Shown piece by piece: positions 9,992 through 45,319 of a DNA stretch of 64,000 bases (positions are counted from its first letter, which is position 1; every line of letters begins with the position of its first letter). Origin of the DNA: Pseudomonadota bacterium (GTDB lineage: Bacteria > Pseudomonadota > Alphaproteobacteria > MPNO01 > UBA2964); NCBI GenBank assembly GCA_036339375.1, contig JAYZBC010000051.1, positions 11,796 through 75,795 of the forward strand, read 5' to 3'. The position numbers were made by a program, and so were the translations under genes. The notes under the pieces were generated by a model. That model saw only the letters and a program-made list of their open reading frames with translations. It did no database searches and had not been told where the DNA came from.

Positions 9992-11149
9992 TTAGGTGTT
10001 GCGGTACTTTTTGACTTTTTCTTCATCCACCTCGATACCAAATCCTGGACCCTCAGGTACAACAATGCATCCGTCTACCATTTGAAAGGCCTCTGAAATC
10101 AAATCATCATTATAATAAATTCCGCCCACCTTCTCATTTTGTACTTCAGCCGGTGTTGATACCGGCACAACACATGACAATGTTACCGGTATCGCTGCAG
10201 CCGCTAAATGTATGTTGGCAAGATTTCCAACACCTGTTTCGACGGAACCGTTAACATTGCATAAGAATTTAGCTGCACGCGCAGTAGCTGCCACCTCCAT
10301 GGCCCCATAAAGTCCCCCCGGTTTGGTTGTATAAATAGAAACAATGTCAGCAGCTCGTCTTTCAAAAATTTCCAAAACATCTCTCGGTAACCAGGCACTT
10401 TCATCGGCCATAACAGGTGTTTCTAAATTTTGAGTAACCTCAGCCATTCTATCTATGCCCTCTACAGGTTGCTCAGCATATTTCAAACCAAAAGGCTCCA
10501 TTTTTCTAAGGATCTGAATTGCGTCTCGGGGAGTTGGGTATCCGCAATTTGCGTCAACACAAAGATCAATGCCCTCACCTACCGCCCTCCTAATTTGGCT
10601 AACGATCTCAATATCACGCTTTGGGTCAACTCCTACTTTGATCTTAATGGTATGAAAACCTTCCCCGACAACCTTTTTGCATTCCTCTACCGCGTCCTGA
10701 ATATCCAAAAGTCCTATTGAATGGGTAACAGGCACACGGTCCCTCACCTTACCACCCAACAGCTGCCAAACGGGCATGCCCAAAGTTCGCCCCGCCAAAT
10801 CATAAGCGGCTATATCAAGTGCGGCTTTTGCATAAGGATAACCTTTTACGGCAGCATCCATACGCTGATGCAAGTCGGCAATATTTCCGACCTCACAACC
10901 CTTTACCGCTGGTGCCAAGTAATTCTCCACAACAAACTTGGTTGTACCCGGGGATTCACCAAAATAACGGCCATAATCTCCACCCCAGTCTTTCAGGGCT
11001 GGAGCCTCTCCCCACCCCACGGCGTGGGTATCACTTTCCATACGGGCCAGTATGTAGCCACCGATTGATTCGGTTAAGCCTGTCCATTTGTGTTCGCGCC
11101 TTGTCGGCAAATTTACGTGAATTACCTCAATTTGTTTTATAGACGGCAT
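9992..11149 (-). CDS. Enolase-superfamily protein, muconate cycloisomerase-like
   Basis: KIKVG (KxK), DAN / EQP / DES metal ligands, IYTTKPGGL. Confidence 0.85.
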   Translation of the reverse strand: MPSIKQIEVIHVNLPTRREHKWTGLTESIGGYILARMESDTHAVGWGEAPALKDWGGDYGRYFGESPGTTKFVVENYLAPAVKGCEVGNIADLHQRMDAAVKGYPYAKAALDIAAYDLAGRTLGMPVWQLLGGKVRDRVPVTHSIGLLDIQDAVEECKKVVGEGFHTIKIKVGVDPKRDIEIVSQIRRAVGEGIDLCVDANCGYPTPRDAIQILRKMEPFGLKYAEQPVEGIDRMAEVTQNLETPVMADESAWLPRDVLEIFERRAADIVSIYTTKPGGLYGAMEVAATARAAKFLCNVNGSVETGVGNLANIHLAAAAIPVTLSCVVPVSTPAEVQNEKVGGIYYNDDLISEAFQMVDGCIVVPEGPGFGIEVDEEKVKKYRNT

Positions 11150-11326
11150 AAAATATCCTATTTATTGGTATAAATTTGGCTCATTATCACTAAAAACACC
11201 CAAAATAGAACTAACCCTAAAACCCATTTCAATTATAATTCGAATTGAATTTGAATTTTTCGCATTTAAATTCTAATGTGCAAAACATTTTTTACTAATC
11301 TTATAGAAAAGCAAGGAGAACTTTTA

Positions 11327-12835
11327 ATGGCCGACAATTCCACAGCTACAGCAAAACCAATCAGTAACATCCGCTGTGTCTTACCTTATAAAGATTTAAG
11401 GGAGTGGCTTGTAGAAGTGGAAAAATTAGGCGAGTTAGTGGTCACCAAAGGCCTTGATTCTCAAAAAGAAATTGGCATGGCTGCTGAAATGTTAATGCAC
11501 CCAGATGAGGCTCCTTGTGTGGTTTTTGATGAAATCCCAGGCTATGAAAAAGGGCATCGCGTCTTAGTCAATTTCTTTGCCGGCAAGCGAAAAAATATGA
11601 CACTTGGGTTTCCAACTGATCTCAATAAACTTGAACTCTCCGAGGCTTATTATGAGCATCAATTAAAAGGTTTAGAGCCAATTCCCTATAAAATTGTTGA
11701 AGACGGCCCGGTCCTAGAGAATATTCAGGAGGGAGAGCAAGTGGACGTAAACCGTTTTCCGGCTCCGCTTTGGCATGAAGCTGACGGCGGGCGGTATTTG
11801 GGAACGGGTTCTTATGACGTCACGATGGATCCGGACAACCATTCCCTAAATCTTGGTACCTATCGCGTTATGATCCACGACAAAAATCATGTCGGTTTTT
11901 ACATTTCACCCGGAAAACATGGTCGAGTGCACCGGGACAAATGGTTTGCCAAAGGCAAGCCTATGCCGGCCGTTGTGATTATTGGCGGGGACCCGATGAC
12001 ATTTTTGAACGGTTGTACAGAAATGCCTCCAGGTGTTTGCGAATATGACATTGTGGGAGCAATGCGCGGAAAGGCTCTTGAGGTCATTAAGGGGAAGCAT
12101 ACCGGAATTCCATTTCCAGCGGATGCGGAAATTGTGATTGAGGGATTTGTTGATCCTGACGATCAGCGAGACGAAGGCCCGTTTGGAGAGTGGACAGGAT
12201 ATTATGGCTCCGACATGCGACCTGAACCAACGATGGAAATTAAAGCCATCTATCATAGAAATAATCCAATAATTCTTGGTTGTCCGCCGCAAAGACCACC
12301 CGATGAAATGTGTCGTTACAGAGCCGTTACACGTTCCGCGATGTTGCGCGACAATATTGTCAAAGCTGGTGTCCCCGATGTGACAGCTGCTTGGGCACAC
12401 GAAGTAGGCAATGGTCGAATGTTAATCGGCGTTTCGATCAAACAACGCTACCCCGGACACGCCATGCAAACGGGACACGTGGCTGCAATGTGCCATGTTG
12501 GAGCATACGCGGGTAAGTATGTTTACGTGGTTGACGATGACATTGATGTTTCAGACCTTGAAGAATTGACTTGGGCCATGATCACACGTTCAGATCCGGC
12601 AACATCTATAGATATTATTCACAATGCCTGGTCAACACCCTTAGATCCACGGATTTCCCCGGAAGCTCGGAAAGCAGGAGATATGACGAATAGCCGGGCC
12701 ATAATTGATGCTTGTCGACCTTTCCACTGGAAAGATCAGTTTCCCGCTGTCAATGCACCAACTCCTGAAGAAGCCCGAATTGCAAAAGAAAGATTCGGTT
12801 ATTTATTAGAAGGGAAAAGTTCGCCGGAGGAATAA
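11327..12835 (+). CDS. UbiD-family prFMN-dependent (de)carboxylase
   Basis: Motifs DLREWL, NLGTYRVM, EGPFGEWTGYY, VVDDDID and IIDACRP. Start at ATG 11327 behind AGGAG. Confidence 0.92.
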   Translation: MADNSTATAKPISNIRCVLPYKDLREWLVEVEKLGELVVTKGLDSQKEIGMAAEMLMHPDEAPCVVFDEIPGYEKGHRVLVNFFAGKRKNMTLGFPTDLNKLELSEAYYEHQLKGLEPIPYKIVEDGPVLENIQEGEQVDVNRFPAPLWHEADGGRYLGTGSYDVTMDPDNHSLNLGTYRVMIHDKNHVGFYISPGKHGRVHRDKWFAKGKPMPAVVIIGGDPMTFLNGCTEMPPGVCEYDIVGAMRGKALEVIKGKHTGIPFPADAEIVIEGFVDPDDQRDEGPFGEWTGYYGSDMRPEPTMEIKAIYHRNNPIILGCPPQRPPDEMCRYRAVTRSAMLRDNIVKAGVPDVTAAWAHEVGNGRMLIGVSIKQRYPGHAMQTGHVAAMCHVGAYAGKYVYVVDDDIDVSDLEELTWAMITRSDPATSIDIIHNAWSTPLDPRISPEARKAGDMTNSRAIIDACRPFHWKDQFPAVNAPTPEEARIAKERFGYLLEGKSSPEE

Positions 12836-12923
12836 ATTCTTTAAAAAACCTTGGTACTCTGTGGACTTTACAAAAGTCCACAGAGTTTTGTTTTTGGTTT
12901 TTTACGTTAATGTATTGTTAGCC

Positions 12924-13766
12924 ATGTCACTTTATTTACAACCAGAAACAATAAAAGACGCTGTTGACGCTCTCTCAAAAACCGAATTAACAATTTTGGC
13001 GGGTGGCACAGATTTTTACCCTGCTCGCGTCGGCTTACCCCTTGATGACAATATAATTGACATTTCCCGGATACAGGAAATTAGGGGAATTACTGAATAT
13101 AACGATTGTTTTGAAATTGGAGCCTTAACACGCTGGTCCGAAGTCATTCAGTCACCCCTTCCCGATTATTTTGATGGATTGAAACTCTCCGCAAAAGAAA
13201 TCGGCGGAATACAAATACAAAATGCGGGAACTGTTGTCGGAAATATTTGTAATGCATCGCCGGCAGCGGACGGCATTCCCCCGTTGCTTACTCTTAATGC
13301 CGAAATTTTGCTCGCTTCAAAACGCGGCGAGCATGCGATGCCGATTTCCAAGTTTATTATGGGTAACCGGAAAATACGTCTTGCCAAGGACGAGATGGCG
13401 GTAGGTATAAGGATCTCAAAACCAATTCAGCCGGCGAAGTCAACGTTTTTAAAACTTGGGGCGCGCAAGTACCTCGTTATCTCCATCGTAATGGTTGCAG
13501 CTGTTTTAGAACGGGAGGGGAAAAACATCTGTGCGGCGCGGGTTGCCGTAGGCTCTTGTTCTTCTGTAGCTAAAAGAATGCATTTTTTGGAAAGAGCTCT
13601 AGCAGGAAAGCCGTTTTCACCAGGAATTTCTGCAACAGTTACCAAAGACCATTTAAATTTATTAGCACCGATTGATGATATCCGTGGAACTTCTGGCTAC
13701 CGTAATGATACGGCACTGACTCTCGTGCAACGTGCTTTAGAAACTTTGGTGGCACCCCATGACTAA
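12924..13766 (+). CDS. Molybdenum hydroxylase FAD-binding subunit (xanthine dehydrogenase family)
   Basis: LAGGTD, IGGIQIQNAGTVVGNICNASPAAD, FLKLGARKYL and PIDDIRGT. Start probably ATG 12924. Confidence 0.9.
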   Translation: MSLYLQPETIKDAVDALSKTELTILAGGTDFYPARVGLPLDDNIIDISRIQEIRGITEYNDCFEIGALTRWSEVIQSPLPDYFDGLKLSAKEIGGIQIQNAGTVVGNICNASPAADGIPPLLTLNAEILLASKRGEHAMPISKFIMGNRKIRLAKDEMAVGIRISKPIQPAKSTFLKLGARKYLVISIVMVAAVLEREGKNICAARVAVGSCSSVAKRMHFLERALAGKPFSPGISATVTKDHLNLLAPIDDIRGTSGYRNDTALTLVQRALETLVAPHD

Positions 13767-16509
13767 TTTTACTTTTCATGTCAACGGGCACCGGGAAACT
13801 GTCAATACCGAACCAGTGGAACGCCTTTCTAACGTGCTCCGTAATCAGCTTAGATTGACTGGTACGAAAGTTGGTTGCGATGCCGGTGATTGCGGTGCCT
13901 GCACTGTTCTGATTGGTGGAAGACCGGTTTGTGCTTGCATGGTGCCGGCTGCACAAGCTGCTGAACAAGAAATCCTAACGGTTGAAGGTTTAACTGAAAA
14001 TGGAACCTTAAACTCGCTCCAAAAAGCCTTCCTCTATTTTGGGGCCGCGCAGTGCGGAATTTGTACCCCTGGGATGTTAATGACTGCCACCCATCTATTG
14101 GAAAATAACCCTAATCCCAAAACTGATGAAATTTGTAACGCTCTTGGTGGGGTACTTTGCAGGTGTACGGGGTACAGAAAAATTATAGAAGCCATTTTGC
14201 ACATCGATGATGTTGACAAGGCAAACATTGTTGAACCAAAGGCCAATATGGCGGTTGGGGCACGAGTTGTAAAAGTAGACGGACATGAAATTGTTTCTGG
14301 TAAAATGCAATATGGCGCAGACCAATCTCCTGAAAATGCTTTATGGTTAAGAGTTATCCGTTCCCCTCACTGGAATGCCGAATTTACGTTGGGAAATTTT
14401 GAACCAACGAAAAAAAAACATCCCGGGCTAGTTGATATATTAACTTCAGATGACGTTCCCGGTCTAAATGGATTTGGTATTTACCCAGATATGAAGGATC
14501 AACCCGTTTTGGCAAAAGCGAAAATACGTTATCGAGGAGAAGCCATCCTTGCATTGGTGGGCGACAATGAAACAGTAAACGGAATACGTGACGAAGAGTT
14601 GCCGGTGAAGTGGATAGCTGCACAACCGCTTCAGGGCTTCGAAGCCTCGCTTAAGGTAGGGGCACCACAACTTCACGATGACAAACCAGGTAATATACTA
14701 GCGGATGGGTATACAAGTAAGGGGAATACTGAACACGGGTTCCGAAATAGTGATGCGATTTCTGAAGATAATTTTGAAACTGGTTTTGTGGAACACGCTT
14801 ATATAGAGCCAGAAGCCGGATGGGCGAAACGAATTGGAGACCGATTAGAGATAACGGTTTCAACACAAACTCCTTATATGGACAGGGATGAAATTGCTTC
14901 AATTATCGGTATCCCATGTCAAAATGTTCGCGTCATTCCAACCGCTTGTGGGGGTGGTTTCGGAGGAAAGCTTGATATTTCCGTCCAGCCCCTTCTTGCA
15001 ATTGCCGCCTGGAAACTCAAAAAACCCGTGCGTTGTACCTATAACCGCATCGAATCTATGGCTTCTTCGACTAAACGACATCCTTCAAAAATCACTGGAC
15101 GTTATGGCTGCAGCCAGGAAGGGAAATTACAGGCTTACGAGTTTAATGGAATTTTTAATACTGGCGCCTATGTCTCATGGGGTTTAACTGTAAAAGACCG
15201 TGTTCCTATACATGCGACTGGCCCATATTTCGTGCCCAATATCATAGCAAAATCTCGTGCCATTTTTACGAATGAAACACCTGCTGGCGCATTTCGCGGC
15301 TTCGGTGTGCCGCAAGCTGCAATTGCGCATGAGGCTCTAATAGACATGCTCGCAGAAAAAATAAATATGGACCCACTTGAGTTTCGTTATCTAAATGTTA
15401 TTCGTAAAGGACAAGAGACGGCTACCGGACAAAAGCTTGAAAGTGCAGGCCTTGACCAATGTCTCGATGCTCTTCGTGAAGATTGGTATTTATGGCGTTC
15501 TGATTCCGAAAAACATAATTTAGGAAATGCTATTAAAAAGCGTGGTGTTGGTATTGGTTGCATGTGGTACGGTTGCGGCAATACTTCCCTGGCTAACCCA
15601 TCCACAATGCAGATTGGCATTTCCCCGGAAGGAAACGTCACCCTTTATTCAGGTGCCCAGGACATTGGTCAAGGAACCAACACAACTATGATGCAGGCTG
15701 CTGCTGACGGACTTGGAATAGCCATCAGGAATCTTAAATTAGTTTGGGGAGATACAGATAGGACCCCCGATTCAGGAAAAAGCTCTGCCTCAAGGCAAGC
15801 ATACGTTTCCGGAAATGCTGCTAAATTAGCGGGCGAGGATTTACGCCAGAAAATACTGCGTCTTGCCAACGTTAGTCAGAAAGCATCAATAAAATTTAGC
15901 AACAATCTATTACTCGTGCGAGATGGTGAGACTATCCACCAAATAGACCTTTTGTCTTTGCCTAAAGGTGAAAACGGAGATGTGTTGAAGGGTGAGGGAT
16001 TTTTCGATCCTATCACAGAACCGTTAGATGCAAACGGGCAGGGAAAACCTTACGGAACTTATGGATTTGCGGCCCAGATAGCAGAAATAGAGGTTGATCA
16101 AATGCTTGGGACTGTGAAAGTTTTGCGAATGTCAGCAGCGCACGATGTTGGTCGTGCCTTAAACCCCCAACAAGTAGAGGGGCAGATCCATGGGGGAATT
16201 GCGCAAGGGCTTGGTTTTGCATTAATGGAAGAATATATTCCGGGAAAAACAGAAAACCTACACGATTATTTGATACCTACTATGGGTGATATACCTGAAA
16301 TTAAAACTTATATAATAGAAGATAAAGAGCCCACCGGGCCATGGGGAGCAAAAGGAATAGGAGAACCAGCGCTTTGTGCGACAGCCCCCGCCATTTTTGG
16401 TGCTATTTACCATGCAACCGGTGTCCGTGTTCAGCGCACACCCTGCACGCCATCTCGATTGAGGCAATCTATTAACCAAATAAACGGAGACAAATTTGAT
16501 TCAATTTGA
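13759..16509 (+). CDS. Molybdenum hydroxylase with fused 2x[2Fe-2S] and molybdopterin domains; nicotinate-dehydrogenase-like
   Basis: GCDAGDCGACTV, QCGICTPG and CRCTGY Fe-S motifs; GGGFGGKLD, AFRGFGVPQ and GIGEP (catalytic Glu). Overlaps the FAD subunit gene (translational coupling). Confidence 0.92.
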   Translation: MTNFTFHVNGHRETVNTEPVERLSNVLRNQLRLTGTKVGCDAGDCGACTVLIGGRPVCACMVPAAQAAEQEILTVEGLTENGTLNSLQKAFLYFGAAQCGICTPGMLMTATHLLENNPNPKTDEICNALGGVLCRCTGYRKIIEAILHIDDVDKANIVEPKANMAVGARVVKVDGHEIVSGKMQYGADQSPENALWLRVIRSPHWNAEFTLGNFEPTKKKHPGLVDILTSDDVPGLNGFGIYPDMKDQPVLAKAKIRYRGEAILALVGDNETVNGIRDEELPVKWIAAQPLQGFEASLKVGAPQLHDDKPGNILADGYTSKGNTEHGFRNSDAISEDNFETGFVEHAYIEPEAGWAKRIGDRLEITVSTQTPYMDRDEIASIIGIPCQNVRVIPTACGGGFGGKLDISVQPLLAIAAWKLKKPVRCTYNRIESMASSTKRHPSKITGRYGCSQEGKLQAYEFNGIFNTGAYVSWGLTVKDRVPIHATGPYFVPNIIAKSRAIFTNETPAGAFRGFGVPQAAIAHEALIDMLAEKINMDPLEFRYLNVIRKGQETATGQKLESAGLDQCLDALREDWYLWRSDSEKHNLGNAIKKRGVGIGCMWYGCGNTSLANPSTMQIGISPEGNVTLYSGAQDIGQGTNTTMMQAAADGLGIAIRNLKLVWGDTDRTPDSGKSSASRQAYVSGNAAKLAGEDLRQKILRLANVSQKASIKFSNNLLLVRDGETIHQIDLLSLPKGENGDVLKGEGFFDPITEPLDANGQGKPYGTYGFAAQIAEIEVDQMLGTVKVLRMSAAHDVGRALNPQQVEGQIHGGIAQGLGFALMEEYIPGKTENLHDYLIPTMGDIPEIKTYIIEDKEPTGPWGAKGIGEPALCATAPAIFGAIYHATGVRVQRTPCTPSRLRQSINQINGDKFDSI

Positions 16510-16560
16510 AAAACTGTCATAAACGAAACCATTTCTTTGGAGCGAAAAAGTGAATTTACA

Positions 16561-17103
16561 ATGAAATATATTTATATACTTATGGCCTTCATCCTTTCCT
16601 CAAGCGGCCCGCCTAATATGGCAAAAGCACAGAACAAGGAAAATCACCATCAAGCTCATTCGCAAAAACCAAAACTTCATAAAAATCAAACCCATAACAT
16701 AATCATTGAAAGAATTTGGGCCAGAGCCTCTATTGGTAAAACTGGTGCTGCTTTTTTGACCATTCTTAATAAGGGGAAATCAGAAGATAAATTGATTAAG
16801 GTGATTTCCAAGATTGCAAACCGTGCAGAGCTTCATACTCATATTCAGGACGGCGACATCATGCGGATGCGCCACGTCAAACACGTACCTATCCCTCCCA
16901 ACGGTCTAACGATACTTAAACCCGGTGGATTTCATATAATGTTTATGGGCTTAAAACAAAAATTAACAAAAAGTGATCAATTTTTGCTTACCCTGGTTTT
17001 TGAAAAGGCGGGTAAAATACATACACAGGTCGCGGTAAAACATATGGGTGCGTTGAATGTAAAAGAGAAACACCACCATGGCGCGCATAAGGAAAAACAT
17101 TAA
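16561..17103 (+). CDS. Periplasmic copper chaperone PCu(A)C with His-rich termini
   Basis: Signal-peptide-like N-terminus from ATG 16561; ELHTH...MRM...PGGFHIMFM copper motif. Confidence 0.88.
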   Translation: MKYIYILMAFILSSSGPPNMAKAQNKENHHQAHSQKPKLHKNQTHNIIIERIWARASIGKTGAAFLTILNKGKSEDKLIKVISKIANRAELHTHIQDGDIMRMRHVKHVPIPPNGLTILKPGGFHIMFMGLKQKLTKSDQFLLTLVFEKAGKIHTQVAVKHMGALNVKEKHHHGAHKEKH

Positions 17104-17107
17104 ATTT

Positions 17108-18172
17108 TTATCTAGTTTTTATGGAGGTTATTAGAGCCTTACCAAAATCACTCGTGGTTGCCCTCCCGCCCAAATCAACAGTCCGCGTTTCAGTTTTGGC
17201 AAGTAGGCTGTCTACTTGTTTAGCAAGAAATATTCCAGCTTCACTGAATAATTTATTTGAAGTTTTATCGCCTAGATGTTCTAAAAGCATTGATGTTGAA
17301 TAGAGAATGCCAGTGGGATTAGCTATATTTTGACCCGCAATATCAGGAGCTGACCCATGTACAGCCTGGGCAATTACGTGTTTTTCGCCGGCATTAATAG
17401 ACGCTCCGATGCCAAGTCCACCGGACAATTCTGCCGCTTCATCAGATAGAATATCTCCAAACATATTAGTTGAAACTACAACATCAAATCGCTCCGGTGA
17501 ACGAACCAACAAAGCCGCCATAGCATCCACAATGACTGTATCTAGACTAACATCAGGATAATTGTTTGAAACCAACTTCACCTGTTCCAAAAACATACCG
17601 CTATAATGTTTTAAGACATTCGCTTTATGGACAGCTGTCAGATGTTTCCGCCGCCGTCCGGCAAGCTTAAATGCTGCGTGGGCTATTCTTCTGCAGCCTT
17701 TCACAGTAGCTTTTCCAATTGCTAATGCAACCTCCTCCGTGGGCATAAATTCACCACTCCCGAAAAACATATTCCGATCCGCATAAAATCCCTCGGTATT
17801 TTCGCGAACGATTACCAAATCCATAATGGTCGCTAGTGCAGGAACTCCTGAACGAACTCTGCTAGGCCGTATATTGGCATAAAGATCAAATTCCTTCCTA
17901 AACCAAGCAGAGGGATTGATTCCGCCTTGATCTTCAGATGGGTAGTCTTCTGTAGACACCGGACCAAGAATTACCCCATCTGCCGAATGTGCACTTTCAA
18001 CCACTGAATTCGGCAAGGTAGACCCACACACAGAAAGACTAGCCAAACCAATTTCTTTTTTTTCTAAAGAAAGAGAAAGCGCGAAACGTTGATTAAGAGT
18101 TTCAAGTGCTGAGGCAGCTACGGCAACAACTTCTGGCCCTATGCCATCGCCGGGTAAAATTAAAATTTTCAT
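17108..18172 (-). CDS. Isocitrate/isopropylmalate/tartrate dehydrogenase family beta-decarboxylating dehydrogenase
   Basis: PGDGIGPEV, LYANIRP, VRENTEGFY, NMFGDILSD and HGSAPDIAG. Confidence 0.92.
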   Translation of the reverse strand: MKILILPGDGIGPEVVAVAASALETLNQRFALSLSLEKKEIGLASLSVCGSTLPNSVVESAHSADGVILGPVSTEDYPSEDQGGINPSAWFRKEFDLYANIRPSRVRSGVPALATIMDLVIVRENTEGFYADRNMFFGSGEFMPTEEVALAIGKATVKGCRRIAHAAFKLAGRRRKHLTAVHKANVLKHYSGMFLEQVKLVSNNYPDVSLDTVIVDAMAALLVRSPERFDVVVSTNMFGDILSDEAAELSGGLGIGASINAGEKHVIAQAVHGSAPDIAGQNIANPTGILYSTSMLLEHLGDKTSNKLFSEAGIFLAKQVDSLLAKTETRTVDLGGRATTSDFGKALITSIKTR

Positions 18173-26219: not shown

Positions 26220-27740
26220 TTAAATCTTAGGTTTACGAGAGGTCGAAACCAAACTTTGACGCAGTTTAATAACCAGAGGCCACAGAAAAAGTAAAATTGC
26301 GATAATCATAATTGTCCCAGCGATTGGACGAGCGAAAAAGATCTCCACAGAACCATGTGACATGATGAATGACTGTCGCATTGCGGGTTCTGCTAGCGGA
26401 CCAAGGACAATTGCAAGAACAGCAGGTGCGAGTGGATAGTCTAGCTTGCGCATAAGGTATCCTACCAGACCGAAGATTAACATAAGCCAAACATCATGCA
26501 TGTCCTTAGTGGGAGCAAAACCACCAACGACACATAAAACATAAATAATTGGTGCTAAAATGGTGAAGGGCATTTTTAACACCGCTACGAAGGCAGGGAT
26601 AAAGGCAATATTTATTAACAACGCAAAAAGGTTTGCGGCATATAAACTGGCTATCAAAGGCCAGACAAAATCCTTATGGTCTACAAATAATAGGGGGCCA
26701 GGCTCAAGCCCCCAAATCACCATTCCACCCAGGAGAATTGCCGTTGTTGGCGATCCAGGAATGCCCAAAGTCAACATAGGAAGCATTGAACCAGTACTAG
26801 CCGCATTATTAGCCGATTCGGGTGCCACGATGCCTTCTATATTTCCCTTGCCAAACGTTTCAGGGTTTTTCGAAATTGTTTTGGCAACACCGTAGGCCAT
26901 CAACGCACCGGGTGTTGCTCCAGCGGCGGGCAATATTCCAACAAAATAACCAAGGAGAGACCCCATCACCATCGTCTTTGCCGTCCGCATCAGACTCTTC
27001 AGCGCTTCCAGAGTTCGCGCTATGGAAACAGTGGCCTTACTAATTACCATCTCACCCTTACTTTGTTCGATTGTCCACAGCATTTCCCCAATACCGTAAA
27101 TACCGATGGCAAGAACCAAGAAATTAATCCCGTGGTAAAACCCTGTCAGATCCATAAAAATTAACCGGGGTTGGCCACTTACAATGTCAAGACCAACGGC
27201 ACTTAGGACTAGCCCAATCAATATGGAGAAGATCGTTTTAGGAATATCATCCCCCCCCAAGCCAATGAACGTCGCAAAGGCAAGGATCATCAAGGCAAAC
27301 ACTTCGGGTGGACCGAATGCCAGTGCCACGTCCGCTAGGGGAGGAGCAAAAAGGGTGAATAGAATTACCGAAATAGTGCCTCCAATAAAAGATGCCGTTG
27401 CTGCTGCCACTAGTGCCTTGTCCGCTTGTCCTTTAAGCGCTAGTGGACGCCCATCAAAGGTTGTGGCTACAGCTGTAGATGCTCCCGGAATACCTAACAT
27501 AACTGAGCTAATTGCACCGCCATACATCGCACCATAATAAAGTGCAGCTAGAAAGATGATGGCACCCGTGGGAGGCACTAGGAAAGTCATGGGCAACAAA
27601 ATAGCCACCCCGTTTACAGAACCGAGGCCGGGCATAGCTCCGATGAAAAGTCCAACCAGGCACCCCAAAATTACCAGACCTAAATTAAGGGGTTGGAACG
27701 CTATTAAAAAACCTTCAACGAGAAGGTCAAATACTTCCAT
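26220..27740 (-). CDS. tctA: Tripartite tricarboxylate transporter large subunit
   Basis: GAMPGLG, YGGAISSVMLGIPG, GIVAPESANNA and LTLGIPGS. Confidence 0.93.
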   Translation of the reverse strand: MEVFDLLVEGFLIAFQPLNLGLVILGCLVGLFIGAMPGLGSVNGVAILLPMTFLVPPTGAIIFLAALYYGAMYGGAISSVMLGIPGASTAVATTFDGRPLALKGQADKALVAAATASFIGGTISVILFTLFAPPLADVALAFGPPEVFALMILAFATFIGLGGDDIPKTIFSILIGLVLSAVGLDIVSGQPRLIFMDLTGFYHGINFLVLAIGIYGIGEMLWTIEQSKGEMVISKATVSIARTLEALKSLMRTAKTMVMGSLLGYFVGILPAAGATPGALMAYGVAKTISKNPETFGKGNIEGIVAPESANNAASTGSMLPMLTLGIPGSPTTAILLGGMVIWGLEPGPLLFVDHKDFVWPLIASLYAANLFALLINIAFIPAFVAVLKMPFTILAPIIYVLCVVGGFAPTKDMHDVWLMLIFGLVGYLMRKLDYPLAPAVLAIVLGPLAEPAMRQSFIMSHGSVEIFFARPIAGTIMIIAILLFLWPLVIKLRQSLVSTSRKPKI

Positions 27741-27792
27741 TCTTGTCTTACTCTCTTCTAATTTTTAAAATGGCCAGCTTGTTTAGACATAA

Positions 27793-28308
27793 TCAAAGAA
27801 AAATATCGTAAAGCGGGTAATAAACCCAATCATTTAAAAACCATTTTCCTGCCATCCCCTTCGGCAACTCAATTTTTAGTGCAATCTCAAAAAAGAAAAA
27901 CGTAAAAATTGGCGTAACTACAGCAATACTATTTGTTAGACCCCATGAATGGTTTCCAACAAATCGGATGTAGAAAATCAGGTATAACAATACAGACAAA
28001 TAAACCCCTACCACGTGGATAAGCCCTATCATTACCGTCAAAGACCCAGCACCTATGAGAAATAGGTGTAATCCTCTTTTGTCCATATATGGTAATTTAG
28101 AACGTGATGGGGGACTTTTTCGGCGGTACCATCTTACACCAATCCAAAGACAACAGGCCAACATGCATGCTGATAGCCAAAAAGGGAAGGCTCCACCGCC
28201 TGGTCCTGTTTTTGGATGCCATCCGATTGGAAGTTCGGCACTCTTAATCATTAGATAGAGGGAGAAAACCGCTAAAACAAAAGCCATGGCAAGTTCGGCC
28301 AAACGCAT
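27793..28308 (-). CDS. tctB: Tripartite tricarboxylate transporter small subunit
   Basis: GPGGGAFPFWL, about four TM segments, FFEIALKIELPKG; lies between tctC and tctA. ATG 28308 behind GAGG. Confidence 0.87.
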   Translation of the reverse strand: MRLAELAMAFVLAVFSLYLMIKSAELPIGWHPKTGPGGGAFPFWLSACMLACCLWIGVRWYRRKSPPSRSKLPYMDKRGLHLFLIGAGSLTVMIGLIHVVGVYLSVLLYLIFYIRFVGNHSWGLTNSIAVVTPIFTFFFFEIALKIELPKGMAGKWFLNDWVYYPLYDIFL

Positions 28309-28344
28309 GGCGATCCTCTCCCCCAAAGTTTAGGTTCTACTGCT

Positions 28345-29349
28345 CTATTTTATTTCGCCTGCCGCTTTCAAAAGTTTGCGATGGGCCTCGCGTTCTGCAA
28401 TAAAATATGCATTAAGTTTTTTGCCTGTTAACCAACCAGGTATTAACCCTTTTTTCTTGAGGTAGCCCTGCCAAGCCTTAGACTTATACACCTTTGTGAA
28501 TACATCCACATAAAACGCTTGGGCACTCTTACTCATTCCAGGGGGCGCAACAATACTACGTTGCATGTAGTAAACCATTTTATCCCCATAACCGAGTTCC
28601 TGGAAAGTTGGTATATTACCAAATCTTCCTTTTAATTTACCTTTCGGTGTAAAACTTGCCAAAGGACGCGATTTTCCGGCCTCCCAAAATCCTGCTTGTT
28701 CGGACGGGTTATTAACAGTCGAATTGATATGTTTCCCGATCAAATTTTTCGCGACCGTGCCTCCACCTTTAAACGGCACATAGGTCATTTTGATACCAAA
28801 TTTTTTCTCTAGCATACCGGTTACGAGGGAATCTTCTTGACCCTTACCGGTTCCACCCATTTTCCATGCTGCCGAGCCTGCTTTTTTCACCGCAGCAACA
28901 TAGTCTGGCACAGATTTGATATTTGTATCCGAATGTACCCAAAGTTGAAAAGTATCTTCAGCCAACCTGGCAATTGGAGTGAAACTTGAGATATCCACGC
29001 CAAGACTTGGGTTACGTAGTGGGGTCGTATAATAGCTGTTCAAGGTTGCCAAAATAATATAGTCATTACCGTTGTTGTCCTTAAGATATCTCAAGGCTTC
29101 AGCACCTGAACCGCCACCTTTATTATTCGGAACAAAAGGCTTAGGCGAAATTTTCTTCTTTTCAATTATACCTTGAATAAAACGGGCTAATCGGTCCGCG
29201 CCACCGCCTTTACCAGCCATGATAACAAATTCAACGGGCTTACGTGGCTTCCATGCAGCTTCTGCATCAGATAATGTGATGCTGCCCTGGATACCAAAAA
29301 TAAAACTCGTCAAAAGTGCAAAAACACCTGTTTTTAAAAATAGTTTCAT
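28345..29349 (-). CDS. tctC: Tripartite tricarboxylate transporter substrate-binding protein (Bug/TctC)
   Basis: Signal peptide, GKGGGAD, NNKGGGSG and YVPFKGGG. Confidence 0.92.
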   Translation of the reverse strand: MKLFLKTGVFALLTSFIFGIQGSITLSDAEAAWKPRKPVEFVIMAGKGGGADRLARFIQGIIEKKKISPKPFVPNNKGGGSGAEALRYLKDNNGNDYIILATLNSYYTTPLRNPSLGVDISSFTPIARLAEDTFQLWVHSDTNIKSVPDYVAAVKKAGSAAWKMGGTGKGQEDSLVTGMLEKKFGIKMTYVPFKGGGTVAKNLIGKHINSTVNNPSEQAGFWEAGKSRPLASFTPKGKLKGRFGNIPTFQELGYGDKMVYYMQRSIVAPPGMSKSAQAFYVDVFTKVYKSKAWQGYLKKKGLIPGWLTGKKLNAYFIAEREAHRKLLKAAGEIK

Positions 29350-29597
29350 TCTTTTCTCCCTTTCCCGGTAACGTCCCGGGTTTTAATGATCCTTTATTTA
29401 ACTAAGTCTAAAGAAACGACTAACACTCGATCACTTATTCCAAGACATTCTAAAATTTAGCCTCGATTACATGGAAAAGTTAAACGGAAGCAAAGGTGCT
29501 GTACAGCCTCTAATAAACGTATTTTTTGACCATTCCGTAAGTTTTTCGTTAGTTTGTGTTTTTTAGCAACCCTATTTGAACAATTGGAGGTTCGGTG

Positions 29598-30335
29598 ATG
29601 AAGCAAAATCAGATATACGGATATAGAGCTCGAATAGGTTACACCGTGGCCGCCGTAACCACGGAGATTTATCCTATCGATTGGTATCGGGTTGTCCCAA
29701 AAGGTGTTTCCTTAATGATGATTACTCTACCTCTCGGTAATCGTTCAAATTCGGATCTAAAAAAGTGTTACGAAATTTCCATTAAGGGGGCACAAACTAT
29801 GGCACAGGCTGGAGCCGATTTAGTCCTCCTTGGGGGACTCCCAATCAACATTTCCAAAGGTAATCATTCGCTCGAACAACTCATGGACCACCTGGAGACC
29901 AAAACCGGTGTGCAAATGTCATGCTCAGCATTGGCTCAATCTAACGCTTTCACCAAACTGGGTGCGAGTAAAGTCTGCACCATTCATCCCTTTCTAAAAG
30001 ATCAAAATAAGAGGCACGAACGCACTATTTGTGATTATTTTGGTCTGGAGTCTACAGGAGTTTTTGCGGGAGGCTCCAATTTAATCCAGCTAGGTACCCT
30101 GCCTCCCGAAAAAGCTCTCCAATGGGGACGTGAAGCGATATCTAAACACCCCGAAGCTGATACTCTTTATTTTGGGTGCCCTCATTGGACTGTAGTTGAT
30201 GCTATAGAACCCTTAGAAAAAGAGTTTGGTGTTAATGTTATGACGTCTTTACAAGCGATTGCTTGGGAATCTATGAGAAAGACAGGGATTAATGATCCAG
30301 TAAATGGGTTTGGACGATTACTTCGAGATTTTTGA
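29598..30335 (+). CDS. Arylmalonate decarboxylase / maleate isomerase (Asp/Glu racemase fold) family protein
   Basis: RARIG, ADLVLLGGLP, YFGCPHW and VMTSLQAIAW. ATG 29598 sits 7 nt after GGAGG. Confidence 0.85.
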   Translation: MKQNQIYGYRARIGYTVAAVTTEIYPIDWYRVVPKGVSLMMITLPLGNRSNSDLKKCYEISIKGAQTMAQAGADLVLLGGLPINISKGNHSLEQLMDHLETKTGVQMSCSALAQSNAFTKLGASKVCTIHPFLKDQNKRHERTICDYFGLESTGVFAGGSNLIQLGTLPPEKALQWGREAISKHPEADTLYFGCPHWTVVDAIEPLEKEFGVNVMTSLQAIAWESMRKTGINDPVNGFGRLLRDF

Positions 30336-31169: not shown

Positions 31170-32753
31170 CTAGTTGCCAACTGGCAAAAAAATTTTATTA
31201 TTGTTACCTAGGTCCCATTCCCCGTTTTTCAGCCGAACCAATTCCCCTTTACTTCGTATTTGATCCAAAGCAAGTAAAACATCCCGCCCGTCAACACTCC
31301 CTGTCCCAGAAACCAAAGCTTCAAAAGTTTTTGGCCCATCCTTTAAAGCTTCCCTAACACTACGAAAACGCCGATTTGTCGGTAAAGGCCTGGGAGGCTT
31401 CGGAACAGAAAGCTCTAGCGCTTCACGTTTGCCAAAAGGTAAAGTCAGGTCATAGCCCGCTTTGGAACCGACGTTACGACCATCCAAAGACGGATCATGA
31501 GGTAATGTCCGAAAACCAGACAATACAATCAAATCTCGGTCTGGTTGAAATCGTGTCGCCATGGCCCAATCTATCTGTTCATCAGAAAATATATTTATAT
31601 CGTCATCAACAACATAAACATTCTTAACGTTGGCAAGAGAACCGTGTATTGCGGAAATTGCGTTCCTCGCCTCGCCTGCAACACGCTGCCGCAAGCTAAC
31701 CCGGACGTTCATCACGCCAGCCCCCGATGCCGTTGAATAAACGCCTAAAGGCTCACGCACGGCTGTTTTAAGAGCATCCCAGACTAATGCTTCAGTCCTG
31801 GCCCCAGCAATTTGAGCTGTATCGGTATTTCCAATACGAAATCCACTAATGGTTGCCGTTTGAAAAAGTGCGTCTTTACGCATTGTAATTGCCGTTAAAT
31901 GAAAAACTGGGTTGGGTTTCATTAAACCGTAATATCCAAAGGTTTCCCCATAAGGACCTTCTGGATTGACGTAACCCCGTTCGTCAAAATACCCCTCCAA
32001 TACAATCTCAGCATCTGCGGGAACGGGCACTCCATTGGTAACTCCCTTAACGAATGCAACCGGTTCACCACGGAGTGTTCCAATTAACCCAAGCTCATCT
32101 ACTGCTACCCTCATGGCAGCAGCTAAAAAATCAGTTGGGTGTGATCCTACAGTGAAACTAACTGGTAATCTTTCTCCGTTGGCAACAGCCTTTTGGTATA
32201 AATGCCGTAAGTCACTGGGCGCTGTAAGATTTAAACCGGCAGTCTGTCTCCCCATTAACATCAAACGGCGACTTCCAACATTGACCCAGCCTGTTTCTGG
32301 ATCCATTGCAAAATCGATTCCTGCCGAAATATAGGGTCCCCCATCCATTTCATGCTGCAAATGAACTGGTAGTTTGGTAAAATCAGCAGAATCACCAGTA
32401 AGAATCATATCATGCACAGGAGCATTCTCTGAAGAAATTTCTATAGTGGATTTTGGATTGGTCATCCGCTGGATCATTTCATTGGCAAGTTGCGCAGGCT
32501 GAACACCGAATGCGGCAGCTAGCCTGGTCCTACTGCCCATCACGTTTCCAAATAATTCAGCCTGCTCGGGCCCTACCTTTTGAAATAAAACAGCCTTTGA
32601 ATGACCATCAAGAACTTTTGCCACATCAATTAAATCAATCGGCTCTTCAATAACTTCTACTTCCCCTGCCTCTAAGAGCTGTTCCGCAAAAACACGAAGA
32701 CGGAATTTGTCGAGATCTGGAACATCCGTCTGTGACTCTAAAGGTTGCTTCAA
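31170..32753 (-). CDS. UbiD-family prFMN-dependent (de)carboxylase with a C-terminal extension
   Basis: DGGPYIS, VGSRRLM, VPADAEIVLEG, EGPYGETFGYY, VVDDDINI and ATRFQ. TTG start. Confidence 0.9.
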   Translation of the reverse strand: MKQPLESQTDVPDLDKFRLRVFAEQLLEAGEVEVIEEPIDLIDVAKVLDGHSKAVLFQKVGPEQAELFGNVMGSRTRLAAAFGVQPAQLANEMIQRMTNPKSTIEISSENAPVHDMILTGDSADFTKLPVHLQHEMDGGPYISAGIDFAMDPETGWVNVGSRRLMLMGRQTAGLNLTAPSDLRHLYQKAVANGERLPVSFTVGSHPTDFLAAAMRVAVDELGLIGTLRGEPVAFVKGVTNGVPVPADAEIVLEGYFDERGYVNPEGPYGETFGYYGLMKPNPVFHLTAITMRKDALFQTATISGFRIGNTDTAQIAGARTEALVWDALKTAVREPLGVYSTASGAGVMNVRVSLRQRVAGEARNAISAIHGSLANVKNVYVVDDDINIFSDEQIDWAMATRFQPDRDLIVLSGFRTLPHDPSLDGRNVGSKAGYDLTLPFGKREALELSVPKPPRPLPTNRRFRSVREALKDGPKTFEALVSGTGSVDGRDVLLALDQIRSKGELVRLKNGEWDLGNNNKIFLPVGN

Positions 32754-43200: not shown

Positions 43201-45315
43201 ATGAAATTCAAAATTGGGGTGGATGTCGGAGGAACTTTTATTGATCTCGTGGTTTCCGATGATCAACTTGGTAAACGTTTCCACAAAACCCTAGCTGATC
43301 CCAAGGATCTTTCTGGTTCCCTTTTTGCTGGACTGGAATTCATAGCCAAGGACATGGGTTTAACGCTGGCCGGTCTCCTTAAAAACACTTTAATGATTAT
43401 ACATGGGAGTACAGTAGCTACCAACGCGTTGTTAACGCGAACAGGTGCTACCACCGCATTGTTAACGACAGAAGGTTTTCGTGACGTCCTTAACATGCGG
43501 AGAGGCATGCGTTCAAATCAATATAACCCTAAACAAGCGCCTCCTACACCGCTTATTCCGAGGCAATTAATTCTTCCAATTCCCGAACGCATCGATTGCG
43601 AAGGAAATGTGGTCAAACCAATAAACAAAAAAAGATGCGACGAAATTCTCACAAAACTTAGGGATGAAGGTGTAGAAAGTGTTGCTATAGGTTTCTTGTT
43701 TTCGTTTATGAACAAAAAACATGAAGATTATTTAGCATCTAGGCTTAAAGAGTTTATGCCTGATGTGCATGTTTCAACTTCGAACGAAGTCCTTCCAGAA
43801 GTACGACTTTACGAAAGACTGAGTACAACGGCTGTTAATGCCTATGTTACCCCCATCTTAAGTCGGTATTTACATGCACTCAAACTGCGTCTTAAGAATT
43901 CCGGCTTTAAAGGCGACCTACTGATTATGCAGTCAAATGGTGGCGTCATGGGATTTGAAGCAAGTTCTAAATACGGAGTTCGAAGCATTTTATCCGGGCC
44001 GGCAAGTGGACCCATTGCCGGAGCATGGTATGCAAATCTCCAAGGATTATCTAACGCTATTACTATGGATATGGGCGGTACAAGTTTTGATGTTTGCCTT
44101 ATAAATGATGGAAAAACAGAGGTTACCAAGGACTTAGAAATTGATGGCCAAAGAATTGCTTTACCATTGGTGGCGGTTCACACAATCGGTGCAGGAGGCG
44201 GTAGCATCGTAAAAATGGATTCTCGCGGCCTTCTTCAGGTCGGGCCGGAAAGTGCCGGCTCCACCCCCGGCCCTGTTTGTTACGGGCGCGGTGGAATACA
44301 TCCGACAGTCACCGACGCGGATGTCCTTATCGGCTACTTGGGTACAAAAAGTTTCTGGGGCGGCCGGCTCCACCTCGACAAAGCAGCAGCCTATAAAGCA
44401 TTTCAAAAACAAATCGCTCTGCCCATGGATCTAGAGGTAGTCGCCGCCGCCTACGGTGCATACCAGGTCGTCAATGCAGCGATGGTCGATGCAATCAGAG
44501 AGGTATCTATTAGGCGCGGATTTGATCCACGAAAATTTGTGTTAGTCGCAGCAGGAGGAGCCGGACCAATTCACGCATGTGATATTGCAAAGGAGCTTGA
44601 TGTACCCCTAATTTTAATACCGCGCGAGGCTTCAGTAATGTGTGCCACTGGTCAGCTATTGTCTGATTTACGACACGATTACGTAAGGAGCTACGTAATG
44701 CCACTAGAAAAAATTGATTGCGCAATTGTCAAAACTCATTTCTCCGGTATGGAAAAACAAGCCGTAGAAGCACTAAATTTGGAAGGTATTCAAAAGGAAA
44801 AAATACTCATTTCTTATTCGGCCGATGTTAGATATGTAGGGCAATTCAACGATGTAGAGGTGCCAGTAAAATCAACTCAATTTTCGGAACCCACAATTGT
44901 TAAGCTCATCAGAGATTTTCATAAACTTCACGAATCTTTAAACGGCTACCATGTCCTCGATGCGTCTGTTGAGTTAGTCAATCTGCGTTTGGTAGCGAAG
45001 GGACAGACTCAAAAGCCCAAAATCAATAACAAAACGGGTCAAATTCCTGTTAAACAACCGAGACCTATACTTCACCGGAAAGCTTATTTTTCTAATGGTT
45101 TCACTGATGTACCAGTTTTTAATGGATCCGATTTTTTTTCAGGCATAAACGTCCCAGGCCCTGCCATTGTGGAACAAGAAACTACTACAATTCTAGTTCA
45201 ACCTGGCTATGAGTTACATTGTGATCTTTATGGCAATTTTCTTTTGCATAGAGAAGGCCTTAACAAAGAAAAGATAGTAAATTCTTTAAAATCGTCTCGG
45301 TTGCAACAGGATTAG
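43201..45315 (+). CDS. Hydantoinase A / oxoprolinase family, ATP-binding subunit
   Basis: GVDVGGTFID, HGSTVATNA, MQSNGG, SGPASG, DMGGTSFD, IGAGGGS and PTVTDA. Confidence 0.93.
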   Translation: MKFKIGVDVGGTFIDLVVSDDQLGKRFHKTLADPKDLSGSLFAGLEFIAKDMGLTLAGLLKNTLMIIHGSTVATNALLTRTGATTALLTTEGFRDVLNMRRGMRSNQYNPKQAPPTPLIPRQLILPIPERIDCEGNVVKPINKKRCDEILTKLRDEGVESVAIGFLFSFMNKKHEDYLASRLKEFMPDVHVSTSNEVLPEVRLYERLSTTAVNAYVTPILSRYLHALKLRLKNSGFKGDLLIMQSNGGVMGFEASSKYGVRSILSGPASGPIAGAWYANLQGLSNAITMDMGGTSFDVCLINDGKTEVTKDLEIDGQRIALPLVAVHTIGAGGGSIVKMDSRGLLQVGPESAGSTPGPVCYGRGGIHPTVTDADVLIGYLGTKSFWGGRLHLDKAAAYKAFQKQIALPMDLEVVAAAYGAYQVVNAAMVDAIREVSIRRGFDPRKFVLVAAGGAGPIHACDIAKELDVPLILIPREASVMCATGQLLSDLRHDYVRSYVMPLEKIDCAIVKTHFSGMEKQAVEALNLEGIQKEKILISYSADVRYVGQFNDVEVPVKSTQFSEPTIVKLIRDFHKLHESLNGYHVLDASVELVNLRLVAKGQTQKPKINNKTGQIPVKQPRPILHRKAYFSNGFTDVPVFNGSDFFSGINVPGPAIVEQETTTILVQPGYELHCDLYGNFLLHREGLNKEKIVNSLKSSRLQQD

Positions 45316-45319
45316 TGCG

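Follow-up and report, generated by a model that had tools for sequence, protein, structure and literature searches.

A UbiD-family decarboxylase gene beside a predicted nicotinate dehydrogenase with a fused iron-sulfur/molybdenum subunit in a marine alphaproteobacterium

This study concerns a gene for a UbiD-family decarboxylase and the two genes downstream of it, which encode the FAD subunit and the fused iron-sulfur/molybdenum subunit of a hydroxylase (FAD-FeSMo), in a 64,000-nucleotide stretch of alphaproteobacterial DNA (the window; G000:C51:11796-75795, with G000 denoting the window genome, a 3.0-Mb assembly that is 97% complete). We lean towards the interpretation that two units of different history stand side by side at this locus, a nicotinate dehydrogenase and an accessory UbiD decarboxylase operating at the quinolinate/nicotinate node. 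FAD-FeSMo is most likely a plain nicotinate dehydrogenase by predicted activity and no part of an undescribed route. The UbiD gene was probably inserted later as a transcription unit of its own, 5' of the nicotinate dehydrogenase (ndh) genes. We infer the substrates of both enzymes and their metabolic coupling from gene context. A first-pass annotation of the same DNA had suggested that the three genes constitute an undescribed route for a pyridine-type acid. Its description of the genes was accurate, as all three are intact, lie in a row on the + strand and contain the corresponding Pfam domains. Of its biochemical proposal, the pyridine-type acid remains reasonable for UbiD, whereas the Mo part belongs to the known THON nicotinate pathway.

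The identity of the Mo enzyme was assessed by searching each of its segments separately against solved structures only. Nicotinate dehydrogenase from Eubacterium barkeri (NdhFSLM, PDB 3HRD) was the best solved match for three of the four modules. The first Mo half matched NdhL with 256 bits and the second matched NdhM with 228 bits, compared to 166 and 153 bits for the next best match, 4-hydroxybenzoyl-CoA reductase (4-HBCR), and the Fe-S domain matched NdhS with 147 bits compared to 140 bits for the next best structure. In this comparison, the Fe-S and Mo segments did not group with aldehyde oxidoreductase or xanthine dehydrogenase (XDH), in line with the nicotinate-dehydrogenase-like character that had been proposed. 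The four segments quoted in the first-pass annotation align with NdhL and NdhM (3HRD_A/B), AFRGFGVPQ being identical and the others near-identical. Like NdhFSLM, the window enzyme belongs to the xanthine oxidoreductase (XOR) family with FAD, two [2Fe-2S] clusters and a Mo cofactor. The Fe-S, L and M parts are three chains in E. barkeri but a single 916-aa chain in the window (Fer2/Fer2_2, a/b hammerhead PF01315 and MoCoBD_1/2 PF02738 plus PF20256 in Pfam), within which the NdhL/NdhM junction falls; thus the architecture differs, not the catalytic domains. A search with the whole protein matches aldehyde oxidoreductase from Desulfovibrio because this enzyme has the same fusion and not because its Mo domains are closer. 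The gene for the selenium-maturation factor YqeB (TIGR03309) had no match in the 97%-complete genome; with no YqeB-type gene, a sulfido ligand may be likelier than a seleno ligand, although the sequence does not reveal the ligand itself. A single XdhC-family gene is present in the window genome (C6:29165-29368).

The genomic surroundings of FAD-FeSMo in related bacteria connect the enzyme to nicotinate catabolism. FeSMo occurs as a single-copy orthologue with 61-72% identity in 35 of 41 genomes searched, and a scan with one genome per species yielded 80 related loci (FeSMo identity 55-72%), in 75 of which the FAD gene lies directly 5' of FeSMo. Outside the window's family, the usual order is a divergent POR-like 2-oxoacid:ferredoxin oxidoreductase or hydantoinase A/B, followed by FAD, FeSMo, a gene for a protein of about 500 aa, another for about 290 aa and AA_synth (PF06684), after which a second XOR large subunit, an amidohydrolase and an isochorismatase-family hydrolase are often found. 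In high-GC loci, antisense shadow open reading frames (ORFs) arose during ORF calling, and these loci were re-read with tblastn and ORF lists. By ORF clustering, the gene of about 500 aa lies 3' of FAD-FeSMo in 37 of the 80 loci. Its product matches no Pfam or NCBIfam model and is named 'putative 6-hydroxynicotinate reductase' in the protein atlas and '6-hydroxynicotinate reductase' by JGI and NCBI, while the protein of about 290 aa is ApbE-like (UPF0280).

In the window genome, the reductase, ApbE-like, AA_synth and enamidase partners are found together on contig C25. This contig carries the sole close matches to 6-hydroxynicotinate reductase and enamidase in the genome, consistent with the earlier observation that neither gene is in the window. 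The amidohydrolase on C25 is orthologous over its full length to the enamidase of E. barkeri, which it matches with 355 bits (2VUN) and equals in size (386 aa each). On C25, a POR-like gene is divergent from the reductase gene, which is the slot of FAD-FeSMo in other families, indicating that the ndh genes moved out of the nic cluster in the window's family. In an aerobe, the Hnr-like reductase may draw its reduced ferredoxin from the POR-like pair. We regard nicotinate dehydrogenase as the most parsimonious assignment of FAD-FeSMo, given that the reductase and enamidase genes adjoin it in the majority of relatives and are found at a separate place in the window genome. E. barkeri-type clusters are present in Azorhizobium caulinodans, Bradyrhizobium and Rhodopseudomonas, with the THON route proceeding via glutarate (PMC3511419), and the nicotinate pathway has been summarised (PMC9304392). 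Compared to this THON-type nic cluster, the ndh genes are detached in the window's family and have a UbiD gene upstream in the window genome. FAD-FeSMo would hydroxylate nicotinate to 6-hydroxynicotinate with water as the first THON step, and the product would be passed on to 6-hydroxynicotinate reductase and enamidase and eventually yield glutarate, the enzymes of the remainder being encoded on C25. The Mo enzyme is therefore, in our view, a putative new representative of a known enzyme that has a fused chain, is encoded away from its cluster and bears an incorrect name in public records.

The UbiD protein matches PF01977 with 220 bits and PF20696 with 94 bits and scores above the cut-off of TIGR00148. 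Its closest solved relative, 7PDA (deposited as 'UbiD family decarboxylase'), is remote, with 353 bits over residues 21-477. The sequence EGPFGE occupies residues 283-288, and the Asn and Arg of NLGTYR as well as the E-x4-E motif align with 7PDA, in agreement with the initial description of the Arg and EGPFGE as intact. The roles of the individual Arg and Glu residues are assumed here from what is known of Fdc1 and UbiD. While these motifs are shared, 7PDA is distant in sequence and has no known NadC or Ndh context. The ORF of the window UbiD opens at 11276, but translation probably begins at ATG 11327, which AAGGAG precedes by 8 nt and which is the start already annotated. The genome contains one UbiX gene (TIGR00421, 242 bits; G000:C56:24803-25348), which is unlinked to the locus.

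In a FastTree phylogeny of 138 sequences with SH-like support values, the window UbiD belongs to a 47-member clade (support 100), apart from the other paralogues of the genome. Within this clade, UbiD repeatedly occurs with NadC: in the order MFS-NadC-PhnN-like-phosphorylase-like-UbiD in three genomes (G036, G029 and G033), as NadC-UbiD in G039 and as MFS-TctC-NadC-TctC-UbiD in G026 (MFS, major facilitator superfamily transporter). NadC-UbiD operons recur on independent metagenome contigs (P0130, P0131, P0135, P0151 and P0192), and in P0139 a LOG-like nucleotide phosphoribohydrolase takes the place of PhnN and the phosphorylase. The clade-linked NadC is a true equivalog with 280-306 bits against a cut-off of 198, and the NadC of the UbiD operon is the sole NadC in the four genomes of family f2 that were tested. 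G025, whose UbiD is 67% identical and is not in the tree of 138 sequences, has genes for XOR Fe-S and FAD subunits, NadC and then UbiD. Altogether, many lineages show a link of the clade to NadC, and two show one to Ndh. Phenazine-1-carboxylate decarboxylase (PhdA) has been described (PMC6644310), and the gene contexts of the clade point to pyridine carboxylates rather than phenazine-1-carboxylate.

The conserved MFS-NadC-PhnN-like-AMP/thymidine-phosphorylase-like-UbiD operon was located at L133:4845-10709, L134:9254-16498, L135:6234-10744 and L140:3615-9506. PhnN-like denotes the ribose-1,5-bisphosphokinase that forms phosphoribosyl pyrophosphate (PRPP). The operon holds the only NadC in the closed genomes that were checked, and NadA was not found there. 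Its role could be to regenerate the PRPP used by NadC or to liberate nicotinate from nicotinate mononucleotide (NaMN). We are not aware of any description of this operon.

The junctions between UbiD and the FAD gene indicate how the window arrangement may have arisen. In most relatives of the same family, the gene similar to muconate cycloisomerase (MLE-like) abuts the FAD gene with a spacer of about 130 nt and no UbiD between them, and in this spacer an operator-like motif is conserved and a TATAAT-like box precedes the ATG by a few bases. In the window, UbiD sits between the MLE-like and FAD genes and has its own AT-rich upstream region, which lacks the operator-like motif of the relatives. 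Similarity to the relatives' spacer persists only over the final 20-40 nt or so ahead of the FAD ATG, and from its sequence this remnant may act as promoter. The ORF of the FAD subunit opens at 12861; given the junction sequence and an alignment to orthologues that begins only at residue 22-25 of this longer ORF, we place the probable start at ATG 12924. The start of FeSMo overlaps the FAD stop by 8 nt. A hairpin 20 nt past the UbiD stop has a folding energy of -27.8 kcal/mol (z -6.1), and none of 200 shuffled sequences was equally stable. Contigs from RNA libraries of four studies match mostly UbiD, leave 12863-13690 uncovered and in no case bridge the terminator; these contigs are short and uninformative on FAD-FeSMo expression or termination. 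In a second genus (G012), an orthologous UbiD with 80% identity lies between a short-chain dehydrogenase/reductase (SDR) gene and the FAD gene, with stop and start overlapping as TAATG. Judged from sequence, the G012 junction would be operonic and the window junction probably not. Two genera thus have the same UbiD orthologue immediately 5' of the FAD gene, joined to it by junctions that are not homologous, and the juxtaposition looks non-random despite the unconserved linkage.

With regard to the spacers of the relatives, the operator-like motif AGTCTGGTCAGTC ... CCTGTCAAAC is common to L029:12237-12348, L030:7717-7825, L031:12282-12385 and L032:12231-12350. In these four spacers, the TATAAT-like box is only about 7 nt from the FAD ATG, which together with the motif points to ndh transcripts that lack a leader and are controlled by a specific regulator.

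The records of the relatives are almost all labelled as marine or seawater alphaproteobacterial metagenome-assembled genomes. Positions 11000-17200 of the window are nearly identical (63-93% of sampled words) in 14 seawater or marine plankton metagenome runs from at least nine studies, indicating a wide oceanic distribution of the UbiD-ndh arrangement.

The substrate of NadC is quinolinate and that of Ndh is nicotinate; decarboxylation at C2 is the single reaction connecting these compounds, which is why we place UbiD at the quinolinate/nicotinate node. In this scheme, UbiD would be a decarboxylase dependent on prenylated FMN (prFMN), served by the single UbiX, and would supply the nic pathway with nicotinate or 6-hydroxynicotinate made from quinolinate, another pyridine dicarboxylate or 6-hydroxyquinolinate. 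Spontaneous cyclisation of the 3-hydroxyanthranilate dioxygenase (3-HAO) product gives quinolinate, as is known from the kynurenine pathway. This reaction would be the source of quinolinate in the window genome, where no NadC is present to use it. Absences of NAD genes were determined with single family models in assemblies that are 94-100% complete, and PF04095 was the probe for the nicotinate phosphoribosyltransferase (NAPRTase) family, since TIGR01514 is too narrow. 3-HAO was found in all ten genomes of the order, including the window genome, and none of these ten contained NadA or NAPRTase-family genes. NadC was absent from five genomes of the window's family, and neither QRPTase_C nor NadD had a match in the window genome, the only one searched for these two. 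The window's family may depend on nicotinamide mononucleotide (NMN) or nicotinamide riboside or on an unrecognised route to NAD. It is possible, and we propose it only tentatively, that the UbiD clade is the first case of a prFMN-dependent enzyme decarboxylating pyridine dicarboxylates, the prime candidate reaction being the conversion of quinolinate to nicotinate and CO2.

Several observations weigh against a nicotinate dehydrogenase accompanied by an accessory UbiD. Conserved linkage to UbiD had been named beforehand as a test of the original proposal, and UbiD adjoins ndh in only one of the 80 related loci (L058, which is G012), leaving 79 without it. The terminator-like hairpin between UbiD and the FAD gene is strong and weakens the case for co-regulation. 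With 94 bits to CutM and 86 bits to NdhF, the FAD subunit is not specifically Ndh-like. The contexts of the clade vary: in G007, G002 and P0125 the clade UbiD lies beside an orphan CoxL-like large subunit, the neighbourhoods in P0155 and P0149 are uninformative, and no clade UbiD was seen in four f4 genomes (NadC-PhnN-GT3) and G031 (NadC-GT3) within 1.5-kb flanks, which end before passing GT3. Of three sister-clade contexts used as controls, two are without NadC and one has a gene for quinolinate phosphoribosyltransferase (QRPTase) 1 kb away. NadC together with the nucleotide phosphorylase or the LOG-like enzyme could alone make nicotinate from quinolinate, so that a quinolinate-decarboxylating UbiD would be redundant in those genomes. 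Finally, UbiD-family genes number 33 and XOR/CoxL-family large-subunit genes 37 in the 3.0-Mb window genome, with similar counts in relatives from its order, and some adjacency is therefore expected by chance. A distance of no more than 3 kb to an XOR large subunit was observed for seven UbiD genes, compared to about two expected by random placement (P about 0.003); this closeness may reflect functional pairing or simply catabolic islands. The massive expansion of both families, the rarity of the linkage, the terminator of UbiD and the varying contexts would all fit an accidental adjacency, in which UbiD is one of about 33 paralogues scattered over islands and acts on an unrelated aromatic or polycyclic acid, for example in a PhdA-like manner, with no link to nicotinate. 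We find this doubtful, although it deserves serious consideration, since the position of the same orthologue directly 5' of the FAD gene recurs in a second genus with a junction that is not homologous, NadC linkage recurs over many lineages of the clade and pyridine carboxylates are the substrates of both NadC and Ndh.

The tight operon coupling in G012, the position of the ndh genes outside the nic cluster in the window's family and the XOR Fe-S and FAD subunit genes that adjoin NadC and UbiD in G025 could alternatively mean that the Mo enzyme acts before UbiD on a pyridine dicarboxylate, converting quinolinate to 6-hydroxyquinolinate prior to decarboxylation, or that the relocated Mo enzyme has a new N-heteroaromatic substrate. 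A quinolinate route with hydroxylation followed by decarboxylation is outlined for Alcaligenes sp. UK21 in PMC6644310. However, FeSMo is the sole orthologue in each genome and the C25 nic cluster has no other nicotinate dehydrogenase, so FeSMo must still serve nicotinate, and most genomes with FeSMo have no clade UbiD adjoining it. Hence, we judge this order of reactions improbable. A reversed UbiD reaction in the relatives with NadC appears very improbable to us. In that case, nicotinate and CO2 would give quinolinate, which NadC would convert to NaMN in replacement of nicotinate phosphoribosyltransferase, amounting to a salvage of nicotinate that takes up CO2 and sets it free once more, and the window copy would be a leftover. 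In favour of this, the four f2 genomes that were tested have their sole NadC within the UbiD operon, none of the ten genomes searched yielded NadA or NAPRTase-family genes, the operon includes transporter genes and the PRPP-forming PhnN-like gene, and UbiD enzymes are reversible in principle (PMC6644310). Nevertheless, carboxylation is thermodynamically unfavourable, 3-HAO is an ordinary source of quinolinate, and the f4 genomes keep the NadC operon with no clade UbiD seen in the short flanks. In the window genome, which has no NadC or NadD matches, such a carboxylating scheme would be inoperable. We thus retain the juxtaposition of a nicotinate dehydrogenase with an accessory UbiD decarboxylase as the reading that we prefer.

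The combination of a UbiD decarboxylase with an XOR-family dehydrogenase is in itself already known, from HMF/furoate degradation as well as from lumazine degradation. In the HMF/furoate pathway of Cupriavidus basilensis, the UbiD/UbiX decarboxylase HmfFG operates together with the XOR-family dehydrogenase HmfABC, but the substrate is a furan CoA thioester and the three dehydrogenase subunits are separate. Membership of the window genes in the HmfF/HmfABC group was rejected, as the solved UbiD from Pelotomaculum thermopropionicum (6H6V/6H6X), which we take to be HmfF, gave only about 135 bits. Lumazine cluster I of Cupriavidus sp. LA-1 comprises LuDH and a UbiX/UbiD xanthine-8-carboxylate decarboxylase (XCDC; PMC12391406), and thus already pairs a UbiD with an XOR-family hydroxylase in a heteroaromatic pathway, which tells against the undescribed route suggested in the first-pass annotation. 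As in the window, an XOR-family Mo dehydrogenase and a prFMN-dependent UbiD are combined there for the catabolism of an N-heteroaromatic compound. In contrast to the fused Fe-S/Mo chain of the window, LuDH has three separate subunits, and the lumazine cluster includes an amidohydrolase-type isomerase between the two steps as well as UbiX, neither of which is present at the window locus. XCDC was described as having no close relationship to the rest of the UbiD family (PMC12391406). By gene content, membership in a lumazine cluster was rejected, since the DHLI alpha/beta pair, a pterin deaminase and UbiX were not among the ORFs scanned with Pfam and NCBIfam (window 30-31135). The quinolinate route of Alcaligenes sp. 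UK21 resembles our scheme in combining hydroxylation with non-oxidative decarboxylation of a pyridine dicarboxylate; compared by description, its 6-hydroxyquinolinate decarboxylase differs in forming 6-hydroxypicolinate and has no reported cofactor requirement (PMC6644310).

Table 1. Features of the UbiD-ndh locus (window coordinates) and of the separate nic cluster (contig coordinates).
Feature	Position	Strand	Basis or gene content
Divergent MR/MLE-family (muconate-cycloisomerase-like) gene	9992..11149	-	Pfam/NCBIfam; synteny
AT-rich region 5' of UbiD, divergent from the MLE-like gene; Shine-Dalgarno AAGGAG at 11313-11318	11150..11326	+	Sequence reading
UbiD-family decarboxylase, predicted prFMN-dependent, 502 aa	11327..12835	+	PF01977/PF20696
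Intrinsic-terminator-like hairpin (14-bp stem, 3-nt loop), then T-tract	12856..12903	+	Terminator scan, RNA fold
Remnant of the relatives' promoter-proximal sequence (TTAGCC, then ATG), without Shine-Dalgarno	12904..12923	+	Spacer comparison with G006, G015, G013, G010
FAD-binding subunit, NdhF-like, 280 aa from the likely start	12924..13766	+	PF00941/PF03450
Fused 2x[2Fe-2S] and molybdopterin subunit (NdhS, NdhL and NdhM in one chain), 916 aa	13759..16509	+	Pfam
PCu(A)C-like copper-chaperone-family gene	16537..17103	+	PF04314, E 4e-33; synteny in 17/80 loci
Rest of the nic cluster	G000:C25:14000-33900 (L137)		Isochorismatase-family hydrolase, enamidase, orphan XOR large subunit (806 aa), flavin reductase, VanA_C-like
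Nic cluster, continued	G000:C25 (L137)		Two AA_synth (PF06684), ApbE-like, Hnr-like reductase, POR-like pair, pyridine-nucleotide-disulphide oxidoreductase, MarR regulator

The PCu(A)C-like gene lies directly 3' of the Mo subunit throughout the window's family and in no other family. The idea derived from this neighbour, that the Mo active site might contain copper, was rejected on account of the loop AFRGFGVPQ, which is as in XDH and Ndh and differs from the Cys-containing copper-binding loop of carbon monoxide dehydrogenase. Elsewhere in the window, a second UbiD paralogue is encoded on the - strand (31170-32753); it is 31% identical to the first, has the motif EGPYGE and lies near a TctABC transporter (26220-29349) and an arylmalonate-decarboxylase-like gene (29595-30335). 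Genes similar to hydantoinase/oxoprolinase A and B (704 and 578 aa) occupy 43201-47056 on the + strand, and their products share 32-35% identity with HyuA and HyuB, the pair encoded ahead of FAD-FeSMo in loci of Hyphomicrobiales and Phreatobacter.

For the Mo enzyme, which public records call 'aldehyde oxidase' or a generic molybdopterin oxidoreductase, our analyses correct the annotation to the more likely nicotinate dehydrogenase, and the window's family appears to have its nic pathway divided between two loci. That both families are expanded together in a 3-Mb genome, to about 33 UbiD and about 37 XOR-family genes, bears on the use of carboxylated aromatic dissolved organic matter by marine bacteria. 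UbiD enzymes acting on simple pyridine mono- or dicarboxylates were not found in the literature searched, the coverage of which was limited, and we consider the association of the UbiD clade with NadC and Ndh a real lead to a new substrate class. If the clade acts on pyridine carboxylates, these would constitute a new class of substrates for prFMN enzymes, and UbiD would link quinolinate from 3-hydroxyanthranilate breakdown to THON nicotinate catabolism. In relatives that have NadC but neither NadA nor PncB, it would stand at the branch point between NAD synthesis and catabolism. Abundant marine Alphaproteobacteria would thereby possess a water- and CO2-based entry of pyridine dicarboxylates into nicotinate catabolism.

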